From positions 1 to 4,064 of IMG/VR virus record IMGVR_UViG_2534682060_000012: a stretch of 4,064 bases of DNA, one strand, 5' to 3'. The DNA is from a virus (Duplodnaviria > Heunggongvirae > Uroviricota > Caudoviricetes). Positions 898 through 4,064 of the stretch are shown here, one piece after another. How positions within the stretch are numbered: position 1 is the first letter of the stretch; the number at the start of each line of letters is the position of its first letter. A program made the position numbers and the translations under genes. The notes beneath the pieces were generated by a model. That model saw only the letters and a program-made list of their open reading frames with translations. It was not told where the DNA came from and did no database searches.

Positions 898-1032
898 GAA
901 AAATAAAGACTAATTAACTAAATGATATAAATGATAGTTATCTATCATGTGGAGTAGATTGGTCAGGCAAATAAGCTCTTGTCAGCGGCAGGGCGTTCTG
1001 CCGATAACCGTAACCGAAGATGATAACTGACA

Positions 1033-1353
1033 ATGGGTAAAACGAACGACTGGCTGGACTTTGATCAACTGGCGGAAGAAAAAGTTCGCGACGCGCTAAA
1101 ACCGCCATCTATGTATAAAGTGATATTAGTCAATGATGATTACACTCCGATGGAGTTTGTTATTGACGTGTTACAAAAATTCTTTTCTTATGATGTAGAA
1201 CGTGCAACGCAATTGATGCTCGCTGTTCACTACCAGGGGAAGGCCATTTGCGGAGTCTTTACCGCCGAGGTTGCAGAAACCAAAGTGGCGATGGTGAACA
1301 AGTACGCGAGGGAGAATGAGCATCCATTGCTGTGTACGCTAGAAAAAGCCTGA
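1033..1353 (+). CDS. clpS: ClpS, adaptor of the ClpAP protease (N-degron recognition)
   Basis: 106-aa ORF, ATG 1033, TGA 1351-1353. The translation [51 protein letters not shown]... matches ClpS as I remember it for E. coli. It lies 30 bp upstream of clpA, the canonical operon arrangement. Confidence 0.95.
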
Positions 1354-1383
1354 ATGCAGGCATAAAAATTGGGGGAGGTGCCT

Positions 1384-3660
1384 ATGCTCAATCAAGAACT
1401 GGAACTCAGTTTAAATATGGCTTTCGCCAGAGCGCGCGAGCACCGTCATGAGTTTATGACCGTCGAGCACTTGTTACTGGCGCTGCTCAGTAACCCATCT
1501 GCCCGGGAGGCGCTGGAAGCGTGTTCTGTGGATTTGGTTGCGCTCCGTCAGGAACTGGAAGCCTTTATTGAACAAACCACACCCGTTCTGCCTGCCAGTG
1601 AAGAGGAGCGCGACACACAGCCGACGCTGAGTTTTCAGCGTGTACTGCAACGTGCGGTCTTCCATGTCCAATCCTCCGGTCGCAATGAGGTAACCGGTGC
1701 AAACGTTCTGGTCGCTATCTTTAGCGAACAGGAGTCGCAGGCGGCATATCTGTTGCGTAAACATGAAGTCAGCCGTCTCGATGTGGTGAACTTTATCTCT
1801 CATGGCACGCGTAAAGACGAGCCGACACAGTCTTCTGATCCTGGCAGCCAGCCAAACAGCGAAGAACAAGCTGGTGGGGAGGAACGTATGGAGAATTTCA
1901 CGACGAACCTGAATCAGCTTGCGCGCGTGGGCGGAATCGACCCACTGATTGGTCGTGAGAAGGAGCTGGAGCGTGCTATTCAGGTTCTCTGCCGTCGCCG
2001 TAAAAACAACCCGCTGCTGGTGGGGGAATCTGGTGTCGGTAAAACCGCGATTGCGGAAGGTCTTGCCTGGCGAATTGTTCAGGGCGATGTGCCGGAAGTG
2101 ATGGCTGACTGTACGATTTACTCTCTCGATATCGGTTCTCTGTTAGCGGGCACTAAATATCGCGGCGACTTTGAAAAACGTTTTAAAGCGTTGCTCAAGC
2201 AGCTGGAGCAGGACACTAACAGCATCCTGTTTATTGATGAGATCCACACCATTATCGGTGCGGGGGCAGCGTCTGGTGGCCAGGTCGATGCGGCTAACCT
2301 GATCAAACCGTTGCTCTCCAGCGGTAAAATTCGCGTAATTGGTTCGACAACCTATCAGGAGTTCAGCAACATTTTCGAGAAAGACCGTGCTCTGGCGCGT
2401 CGCTTCCAGAAAATTGATATTACTGAACCGTCGATCGAAGAAACTGTTCAAATCATCAATGGCCTGAAACCGAAGTATGAAGCGCACCACGACGTGCGTT
2501 ATACCGCAAAAGCGGTGCGTGCAGCGGTAGAGCTGGCGGTGAAATACATTAACGATCGTCATCTGCCGGATAAAGCCATTGACGTTATCGACGAAGCGGG
2601 CGCTCGCGCACGCCTGATGCCGGTAAGCAAACGCAAGAAAACCGTTAATGTGGCGGATATTGAGTCCGTGGTGGCCCGTATTGCGCGCATTCCAGAGAAG
2701 AGTGTTTCTCAGAGTGACCGCGATACCCTGAAAAACCTCGGCGATCGCCTGAAAATGCTGGTCTTCGGTCAGGATAAAGCCATTGAGGCGCTGACTGAAG
2801 CCATTAAGATGGCGCGTGCAGGTTTAGGTCACGAACATAAACCGGTTGGTTCGTTCCTGTTTGCCGGCCCTACCGGGGTCGGGAAAACAGAGGTGACGGT
2901 ACAGCTTTCGAAAGCGTTGGGCATTGAGCTGCTGCGCTTTGATATGTCCGAGTATATGGAACGCCATACCGTCAGCCGTCTGATTGGTGCGCCTCCGGGA
3001 TACGTTGGTTTTGATCAGGGAGGTTTGCTGACTGATGCGGTCATCAAGCATCCACATGCGGTGCTGTTGCTGGACGAAATCGAGAAAGCGCATCCGGACG
3101 TGTTCAATATTCTGTTGCAGGTGATGGACAACGGTACGCTGACCGATAACAACGGACGCAAAGCGGACTTCCGTAACGTGGTGCTGGTGATGACCACCAA
3201 CGCCGGGGTACGTGAAACTGAGCGTAAATCCATTGGTCTTATCCACCAGGATAACAGCACCGATGCGATGGAGGAGATCAAGAAGATCTTTACACCGGAA
3301 TTCCGTAACCGTCTCGACAACATTATCTGGTTTGATCATCTGTCAACCGACGTGATCCATCAGGTGGTGGATAAATTCATCGTCGAGTTGCAGGTTCAGC
3401 TGGATCAGAAAGGTGTTTCTCTGGAAGTGAGCCAGGAAGCGCGTAACTGGCTGGCCGAGAAAGGTTACGACCGGGCAATGGGCGCACGTCCGATGGCGCG
3501 TGTCATCCAGGACAACCTGAAAAAACCGCTCGCCAACGAACTGCTGTTTGGTTCGCTGGTGGACGGCGGTCAGGTCACCGTCGCGCTGGATAAAGAGAAA
3601 AATGAGCTGACTTACGGATTCCAGAGTGCACAAAAGCACAAGGCGGAAGCAGCGCATTAA
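1384..3660 (+). CDS. clpA: ClpA, AAA+ unfoldase/ATP-binding subunit of the ClpAP protease
   Basis: The ORF track starts at TTG 1369, but the ATG at 1384 is preceded by GGAGG (1374-1378) and gives a 758-aa protein beginning [20 protein letters not shown], which is the ClpA N-terminus as I recall it. Two AAA+ modules are present: Walker A GESGVGKT (nt 2023-2046) and GPTGVGKT (nt 2866-2889), Walker B-like ILFIDEIH and [10 protein letters not shown], and the ClpP-docking IGL tripeptide (nt 3232-3240). Stop TAA 3658-3660. Confidence 0.97.
1876..1890 (+). promoter_or_regulatory. clpA: Internal in-frame translation initiation site of clpA (Shine-Dalgarno plus ATG of Met169), expected to give the shorter ClpA65 form
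   Basis: GGGGAGG at 1876-1882, 5-nt spacer, ATG 1888-1890 in the clpA frame (codon 169). The context is nearly identical to the main start (GGGGGAGG, 5-nt spacer, ATG 1384). Internal initiation at Met169 of E. coli clpA is established knowledge; whether it is used here is inference. Confidence 0.6.
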
Positions 3661-3685
3661 TCTGATTGTTAGGTAGGTTGGTCAA

Positions 3686-3722
3686 GTCCGTAATCTCGAA
3701 AGAGGTTACGGACTTTTTGTTT
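3686..3722 (+). terminator. Rho-independent terminator of the clpS-clpA transcript
   Basis: 12-bp stem GTCCGTAATCTC (3686-3697) / GAGGTTACGGAC (3702-3713) with one G-U wobble and a GAAA tetraloop, followed by TTTTTGTTT (3714-3722); starts 26 nt after the clpA stop. Confidence 0.8.
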
Positions 3723-3724
3723 AT

Positions 3725-3753
3725 GGGGTGGAGGAGGTTCAGACCCTTTTTTT
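3725..3753 (+). terminator. Weak second hairpin plus T7 tract (possible back-up terminator or leader boundary)
   Basis: GGGT (3726-3729) / ACCC (3743-3746) short stem with 13-nt loop, then TTTTTTT 3747-3753. The stem is short, so this is tentative. Confidence 0.3.
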
Positions 3754-3759
3754 GATGAT

Positions 3760-3873
3760 GATGGTAAATTGTTGATAATTAGTGCTGCGGGAAGGTAAGG
3801 ATAAAAAAGGGTGGTAGCAGGAAAATGAGATGGTTTTGCTTTATTAACAACGGGCTAAACGTGTAGTATTTGA
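3760..3873 (+). promoter_or_regulatory. Putative CRISPR leader (AT-rich) with possible promoter
   Basis: AT-rich by eye and lies immediately 5' of the first, best-oriented repeat. A TG-TAGTAT extended -10-like motif sits at 3862-3869, about 5 bp before repeat 1, and TTGATA at 3772-3777. Leader identity is inferred from position and array polarity (degenerate repeat at the far end). Confidence 0.45.
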
Positions 3874-4021
3874 GTTCACTGCCGTACAGACAGCTTAGAA
3901 ATCGACGGGGTGCGGTAAAACCTTTGCGAACGCGTTCACTGCCGTACAGGCAGCTTAGAAATTCACAGGTAACATACTCCACCCGCCCACCATGTTCACT
4001 GCCGTACAGACAGATAAAATG
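3874..4021 (+). CRISPR. Short type I-F (Ypest/Csy-type) CRISPR array with no cas genes in the window: 3 repeats, 2 spacers
   Basis: Repeats: R1 3874-3901 GTTCACTGCCGTACAGACAGCTTAGAAA; R2 3934-3961 GTTCACTGCCGTACAGGCAGCTTAGAAA, the canonical I-F repeat as I recall it; R3 3994-4021 GTTCACTGCCGTACAGACAGATAAAATG, degenerate at its 3' end. Spacers: S1 3902-3933 TCGACGGGGTGCGGTAAAACCTTTGCGAACGC; S2 3962-3993 TTCACAGGTAACATACTCCACCCGCCCACCAT. The 28/32-bp periodicity is exact. Orientation is + from the repeat polarity (3' CTTAGAAA handle) and the distal degenerate repeat. Confidence 0.9.
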
Positions 4022-4023
4022 CG

Positions 4024-4052
4024 AAAAAAAAGCTCGCACTTTCGTACGAGCT
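4024..4052 (-). terminator. Rho-independent terminator for a minus-strand transcript entering from beyond the window end (possibly also bidirectional)
   Basis: On the + strand: A8 (4024-4031), stem AGCTCG (4031-4036) / CGAGCT (4047-4052) with inner pairs A4038-T4045 and C4039-G4044, then CTTCTTT. On the minus strand this reads as hairpin followed by T8, the classic intrinsic terminator. The gene it terminates is outside the window; from memory of E. coli synteny it would be a tRNA-Ser or infA, which is unverified here. Confidence 0.6.
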
Positions 4053-4064
4053 CTTCTTTAAATA

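Follow-up and report, generated by a model that had tools for sequence, protein, structure and literature searches.

A short type I-F CRISPR array downstream of clpA, in a stretch of DNA without cas genes, raises the question of what the array is and whether it could act on anything. We analysed the whole 4,064-nt stretch (hereafter the window), in which a preliminary description had seen a cas-less remnant. We consider it highly probable that the feature is the E. coli orphan anti-cas type I-F array of the clpA-serW locus, a trap against incoming I-F systems. The feature itself is already known and published, a short cas-less array being present after clpA in most E. coli, and what is new here is confined to details of the allele, namely a G17A change in the first and third repeats (R1 and R3) and the aim of the first spacer (S1) at what we take to be the Walker-A codons of Cas3.

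The array and its chromosomal setting

A repeat search combined with direct reading of the window identified three direct repeats of 28 nt each on an exact 60-nt period, with two 32-nt spacers separating the three type I-F repeats across positions 3874-4021 (Table 1). When compared with the Rfam family CRISPR-DR4 (RF01317), which corresponds to the I-F repeats and to the 'CRISPR4' repeats of Kunin et al., R2 scored 50.1 bits (E 5e-10) and R1, which carries one change from the consensus, 40.4 bits (E 5e-7), both exceeding the gathering score of 35, while R3 scored 20 bits. The period and these scores bear out the three I-F repeats and two 32-bp spacers that had been described. The possibility that the repeats belong to another CRISPR subtype was answered by the same scores and by R2, whose sequence is the same as that of the repeats flanking the annotated I-F cas operons of S88 and N47. 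The terminal repeat ends in ...ACAGATAAAATG, as is typical of cas-less alleles, whereas the terminal repeat of cas-positive arrays ends in ...GGCAGTATTCACA. Weak Rfam matches to MicC and Thr_leader at 4015-4064 fell well under their gathering scores and were set aside as terminator look-alikes.

Table 1. Features of the array and its surroundings, in window positions unless a comparison locus is named.
Feature	Position	Strand	Sequence or length	Remarks
Right end (attR) of phage-satellite-like element	1-948
18-bp att core	931-948		ATGATAGTTATCTATCAT	attL copy has one mismatch
clpS	1033-1353
clpA	1384-3660			stop codon 3658-3660
CRISPR leader	3661-3873	+		alignment with cas-less and cas-positive alleles; promoter scan
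clpA intrinsic terminator	3684-3715	+	14-bp stem, then T-run	inverted repeat
Sigma-70-like site (putative promoter)	3752-3779		TTGATG-16-GATAAT	in leader
Repeat 1 (R1)	3874-3901	+	GTTCACTGCCGTACAGACAGCTTAGAAA	I-F type with G17A
Spacer 1 (S1)	3902-3933	+	32 nt; TCGACGGGGTGCGGTAAAACCTTTGCGAACGC	leader-proximal; anti-cas3f
Repeat 2 (R2)	3934-3961	+	GTTCACTGCCGTACAGGCAGCTTAGAAA	exact I-F consensus
Spacer 2 (S2)	3962-3993	+	32 nt; TTCACAGGTAACATACTCCACCCGCCCACCAT	anti-cas1f
Repeat 3 (R3)	3994-4021	+	GTTCACTGCCGTACAGACAGATAAAATG	terminal; degenerate 3' part; also G17A
Convergent intrinsic terminator of the serW (tRNA-Ser) transcription unit	4024-4059	-		2 nt beyond R3
Array in comparison loci	L007 23874-24021; L009 401-488; L002 3213-3300

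The distance of 214 bp from the clpA stop given previously was accurate, with R1 beginning 214 nt after the stop codon and 213 nt intervening. This interval holds an intrinsic terminator that parts clpA transcription from the array leader, and the ~110 nt of the leader adjoining R1 were near-invariant in an alignment of cas-less and cas-positive alleles. A sigma-70-like site in the leader is a putative promoter, as judged from its sequence. At the other end of the array, the convergent terminator reported at 4024-4052 was recovered on the minus strand with a slightly longer stem (4059-4024). The gene order of M18 and AR_0077 places the array between clpA and tRNA-Ser (serW), in the clpA-infA region, and the statement in the preliminary description that this region is the home of the E. 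coli I-F system (CRISPR3/CRISPR4) is confirmed by published work (PMC2886076, PMC3903273). Positions 931-4064 of the window are 100% identical to E. coli strain M18, in which the order is cspD, yljB, clpS, clpA, array, tRNA-Ser (serW), infA, aat and cydCD.

Directly after the position corresponding to the window's last nucleotide, 4064, M18 carries a 178-bp unit (L001 12405-12584) between the window's terminator and serW that contains a further copy of the terminator and of the tRNA 3' end. This unit scores 41.8 bits against Rfam RtT, just under the gathering score of 45, and PGAP annotates an 'RtT sRNA' at the same position in several other strains; K-12, AR_0077 and Ec1115 are without it.

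The upstream side of the array had been described as housekeeping, which holds for clpS and clpA but not for the left end of the window. Positions 1-948 form the right-hand end of a ~10.7-kb phage-satellite-like element that is integrated between yljB and clpS (compare L007 10203-20948), and M18 was ruled out as a match for the whole window because positions 1-930 have no match in that strain. Encoded on the element are a tyrosine integrase, Icd-like proteins and a DUF927 primase-like protein, along with a small terminase and the major capsid and head-decoration proteins, and 168 of 5,426 complete E. coli genomes carry it.

An empty cas slot and the distribution of the array

A scan of the 4,064-nt window found no cas genes, as had been stated. 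In M18 the 12 kb to each side of the array are free of cas genes, and neither M18 nor AR_0077 has I-F cas genes within 12-17 kb downstream of it. In the cas-positive strains N47, S88, A33, 20Y000092 and EC-7215 the layout is clpA, CRISPR, cas1f, cas3f, csy1, csy2, csy3, cas6f, serW, CRISPR and infA, with ~8.6 kb, comprising the leader-distal array flank and the cas operon, between the clpA-side array and the serW terminator. In the window only 2 nt separate R3 from the serW-side terminator, the genes that come next in both M18 and AR_0077 are tRNA-Ser, infA, aat and cydCD, and there is no I-F cas operon just past the window end. Because the terminal repeat abuts this terminator, the slot for cas1f-cas3f-csy1-csy2-csy3-cas6f is empty, and this is visible from the window alone. 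We also compared a chimeric query, consisting of the window plus samples, in reverse complement, from each of the six I-F cas genes, with complete E. coli genomes. This query matched the closest full-length relatives in one place only, with no second match to the six cas gene samples anywhere on their chromosomes. The lack of an adjacent I-F cas operon makes this an orphan array and not a complete system, and the interpretation of the feature as an I-F orphan located at the clpA-serW-infA site of E. coli thus stands, neither a neighbouring operon nor a repeat of another subtype having been found.

A simple deletion junction linking cas-positive to cas-less alleles was sought and none could be drawn, since the two kinds of allele have unlike terminal repeats and also diverge in the sequence that precedes the serW terminator. 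The I-F operons of some cas-positive strains are themselves decaying, with an internal stop in cas3f of N47 (L003 15755-18988) and in csy2 of S88 (L004 12596-13519).

Across the census set of 5,426 complete E. coli genomes, cas1f-cas3f was present in 241 (4.4%), with all copies chromosomal and falling into two sequence classes of 201 and 40 genomes at at least 99% and ~94.6% identity to S88, respectively. The unit of a repeat and S1 was present in 1,560 genomes. Any match to S1 was found in 1,802 genomes against a sum of 1,801 for the array-bearing (1,560) and cas-bearing (241) genomes, and the two sets are therefore essentially disjoint, that is, the array and the cas genes are almost completely mutually exclusive. 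S1 is kept at 32/32 in ~1,550 of the array-bearing genomes.

Array content varies at the locus, K-12 having only S2 as its single spacer, Ec1115 only S1, and the window and M18 both. AR_0077 has another first spacer, which matches cas3f at 31/32 with a CC PAM, followed by a variant of S2 (TTCACTGG...) with one mismatch fewer to cas1f than S2. The exact unit of R1 with G17A and S1 was found in 69 genomes, and ~1,530 others differ from it by 1-2 bases. The full 4,064-nt window was matched by none of the 5,426 complete genomes. The relatives that come closest over the full length cover 4,004 nt, which is 60 nt less than the window, and thus lack one repeat-spacer unit; in Ec1115, one of these relatives that was read directly, S1 is present and the S2 unit is absent. 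The satellite end (1-930) and an S1+S2 array with R1 G17A never occur together in the 5,426 complete genomes, and the window comes either from a strain outside the genome collection or from a recombinant of two haplotypes.

Spacers against cas genes and the G17A allele

The preliminary description had suggested that the array could matter if an I-F system arrives. This idea has a published reason that the description overlooked, in that both spacers match I-F cas genes. S1 matches cas3f at 32/32 in the EC-7215-type allele and at 31/32 in the S88-type allele, in which the mismatch is at position 12. The S1 protospacer (L004 9001-9032, within cas3f) encodes Cas3f residues 425-435, ASTGCGKTFAN, which we take to be the GxGKT Walker-A motif, or helicase motif I. 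S2 matches the antisense strand of cas1f over codons 33-43, at 30/32 in S88 (mismatches at positions 4 and 6) and at 29/32 in EC-7215 (positions 4, 6 and 10). For a single match of at least 29/32 within the operon the chance expectation is ~1e-10. Every protospacer is preceded by a 5'-CC PAM on the spacer-sense strand, in agreement with the E. coli I-F PAM of GG at the leader-proximal end (PMC3506596).

Every sixth guide position is kept from pairing by the Cas7f thumbs of the I-F Csy complex (bioRxiv 10.1101/453720; PMC5965380). The S1 mismatch lies at the non-pairing position 12, so S1 would be an effectively perfect guide against both cas3f alleles. For the same reason S2 would keep one true seed mismatch, at position 4, which is present against every cas1f allele examined, and S2 may favour priming over direct interference. 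That S1 is aimed at the Walker-A codons, with its sole mismatch to the common allele at a non-pairing position, may reflect selection for an escape-proof target rather than chance.

Neither spacer matched phage sequences. Among PLSDB plasmids there were seven matches to S1 or S2, all of them copies of the array and most in chromosome-sized records, and no plasmid-borne cas target was found. Among GTDB species representatives S1 had no match outside Escherichia, and the two Escherichia records that matched comprised one cas3f and one orphan array. The PLSDB 'plasmids' CP088669.1, CP061270.1, NZ_OL790696.1, CP099174.1 and NZ_CP141089.1 carry the chromosomal clpA-side array; several such records are 0.7-4.9 Mb in length and look like mislabelled chromosomes or chromosome fragments.

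The stem-loop recognised by Cas6f has a 5-bp stem, CUGCC-GUACA-GGCAG, and G17A in R1 and R3 places a C9-A17 mismatch within it. Predicted hairpin stabilities were -8.6 kcal/mol for R2, -2.2 kcal/mol for R1 and -1.4 kcal/mol for R3, and among the three repeats only R2 has the canonical 5-bp hairpin. The change in R3 is also found in K-12, M18 and Ec1115, while R1 has the consensus G17 in every other allele that was read directly (K-12, Ec1115, AR_0077, S88 and EC-7215). The first 20 nt are common to R1 and the terminal repeat. The shared change could have come from recombination between the repeats and not from two independent mutations. A mature crRNA is predicted to be 60 nt long, of which CUUAGAAA would supply an 8-nt handle, the spacer 32 nt and a hairpin handle the remaining 20 nt (cf. 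PMC5965380). With G17A present in both R1 and R3, the S1 crRNA may be poorly cut at its 5' end and the S2 crRNA may have a weak 3' handle, and these two ends may be poorly processed or bound.

A probable trap for incoming I-F systems and its alternatives

In the naming of Touchon & Rocha (2010), CRISPR3 is the clpA-side array and CRISPR4 the serW-infA array, which occurs only in cas-positive strains (PMC2886076). The cas-less form is called CRISPR4.1-2 by the Mojica laboratory (PMC3903273, PMC4489801). The E. coli cas-less CRISPR3 (PMC2886076), CRISPR4.1-2 (Diez-Villasenor 2010; Almendros 2014, PMC3903273) and the anti-cas orphan array (Almendros 2016, Nat Microbiol 1:16081) are one and the same. 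Cas-less CRISPR3 holds only spacers matching Ypest (I-F) Cas1, Cas3 and Csy2, and an 'anti-CRISPR' role was proposed for it on the strength of the very Cas1- and Cas3-matching spacers seen here (PMC2886076). The array of the window shares with this form the clpA-serW locus, the 28-nt repeat, the leader, the degenerate terminal repeat, the one or two spacers matching I-F cas1/cas3 and the lack of adjacent cas genes, and differs from other examples only at the level of the allele, in the G17A of R1 and in its combination with a phage-satellite-like insert upstream of clpS, which none of the 5,426 complete genomes shows. With the complete E. coli I-F system of strains such as LF82, S88 and ED1a, arranged as CRISPR4.1 - cas1f cas3f csy1 csy2 csy3 cas6f - serW - CRISPR4.2, it has in common the chromosomal site, a near-identical leader, the repeat consensus, the 32-nt spacers and the CC PAM (PMC3506596). 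Unlike that system, the window has no cas genes, no serW-infA array and a different terminal repeat; it has two spacers, against 5-13 on the clpA side of the cas-positive strains examined, and these are aimed at cas genes and not at plasmids or phages. As in the chromosomal targeting by Pectobacterium I-F systems (PMC3630108), the crRNAs would be directed against resident or incoming bacterial DNA and not phage, and as in other orphan or distant arrays (PMC7145637) there are no neighbouring cas genes. What sets the window's array apart from self-targeting spacers and orphan arrays at large is that it is aimed at the cognate cas operon itself and that most of the species carries it, fixed, at a conserved site of the core genome.

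In the mechanism that we favour, the array would be transcribed from its own conserved leader, transcription being known from the literature, and the transcript would lie idle in cells without I-F Cas proteins. If a cognate I-F cas operon entered, its own Cas6f and Csy proteins would load the resident crRNAs, and the loaded complex with Cas2-3 would be guided to the PAM-flanked protospacers in the incoming cas3f (S1) and cas1f (S2). Cutting of the incoming DNA and primed spacer acquisition would then cause the I-F system to fail to establish, the interference step again being taken from the literature. According to the summary in PMC8616872, Almendros et al. 2016 found native orphan arrays to be expressed constitutively and to give both interference and primed acquisition against plasmids with I-F cas genes. 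We infer that the present allele retains its function. Counting against the trap are the G17A of R1 and R3, which abolishes the predicted Cas6f hairpin, and the seed mismatch of S2, and the mutual exclusivity of array and cas genes is equally predicted if cas was lost after self-targeting. Two evolutionary readings have been published, one in which the cas genes were lost after self-targeting and one in which the anti-cas array is older than the cas genes. The earlier term 'remnant' thus corresponds to only one of these two readings, although the array is indeed a cas-less orphan.

We regard it as unlikely that the array is an inert, decaying relic, left when an ancestor gained self-targeting spacers and lost its I-F cas genes, and now a scar that drifts neutrally and does not work in this lineage. 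Such drift would fit the removal of two of the three Cas6f hairpins by G17A, the minority status of the R1 variant (69 genomes), the S1-only, S2-only and S1+S2 forms that point to units being lost or gained, and the mismatch in the S2 seed to all cas1f alleles seen, and the cas-loss scenario of Diez-Villasenor et al. 2010 is cited in PMC2886076 and PMC8616872. It fits less well with the conservation of S1 at 32/32 in ~1,550 array-bearing genomes and with the near-invariant leader next to R1. Every spacer observed in a cas-less allele is directed at a cas gene, as also reported in PMC2886076, and Touchon & Rocha argue that these spacers are retained even though spacers are often deleted. Interference by native orphan arrays has moreover been reported from experiment (PMC8616872, citing Almendros 2016).

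In bacteria it is common for an array to lie far from the cas genes that serve it in trans (PMC7145637), and an ordinary working array could in principle be served by I-F cas genes elsewhere in the genome or on a plasmid. We consider this very unlikely here because both spacers would attack the very cas genes that served them, which amounts to autoimmunity, and because of the exclusivity seen in the population, where genomes with the S1 array and genomes with cas genes form essentially disjoint sets. Furthermore, 241 of 241 cas1f-cas3f copies are chromosomal, all six that were examined lie at the clpA-serW locus, the closest relatives have no cas fragments and there was no true plasmid match. 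Least probable of all, to the point of being negligible, is that the feature is not CRISPR at all but belongs to a small protein-coding gene or is a repeat of chance or REP-like origin. The array is overlapped on the minus strand by an ORF of 86 aa (3779-4039) and on the plus strand by one of 63 aa (3870-4061), and in several genomes, such as M11957 and PK8261, the RefSeq/PGAP annotation has a 'hypothetical protein' where S1 matches. A non-CRISPR origin is nevertheless refuted by CRISPR-DR4 matches above the gathering score, the exact 60-nt period, the identity of the repeats with those of cas-adjacent I-F arrays at the locus and the PAM-flanked protospacers of the spacers, and both ORFs are very probably spurious gene calls.

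A further possibility concerns the particular allele, which is carried by at most 69 genomes and could be a partly disabled anti-cas trap, although we consider this rather unlikely. Were it true, no crRNA would have two properly processed ends and the lineage would be permissive again to I-F acquisition. For annotation, the lesson is that short arrays of this kind should neither be discarded as junk nor be annotated as hypothetical proteins. For the biology of E. coli, the anti-cas array helps to explain why I-F cas genes are found in only ~4% of complete genomes, and it provides a case in which a species keeps a CRISPR array without cas genes, apparently to destroy the matching cas operon when it comes in.
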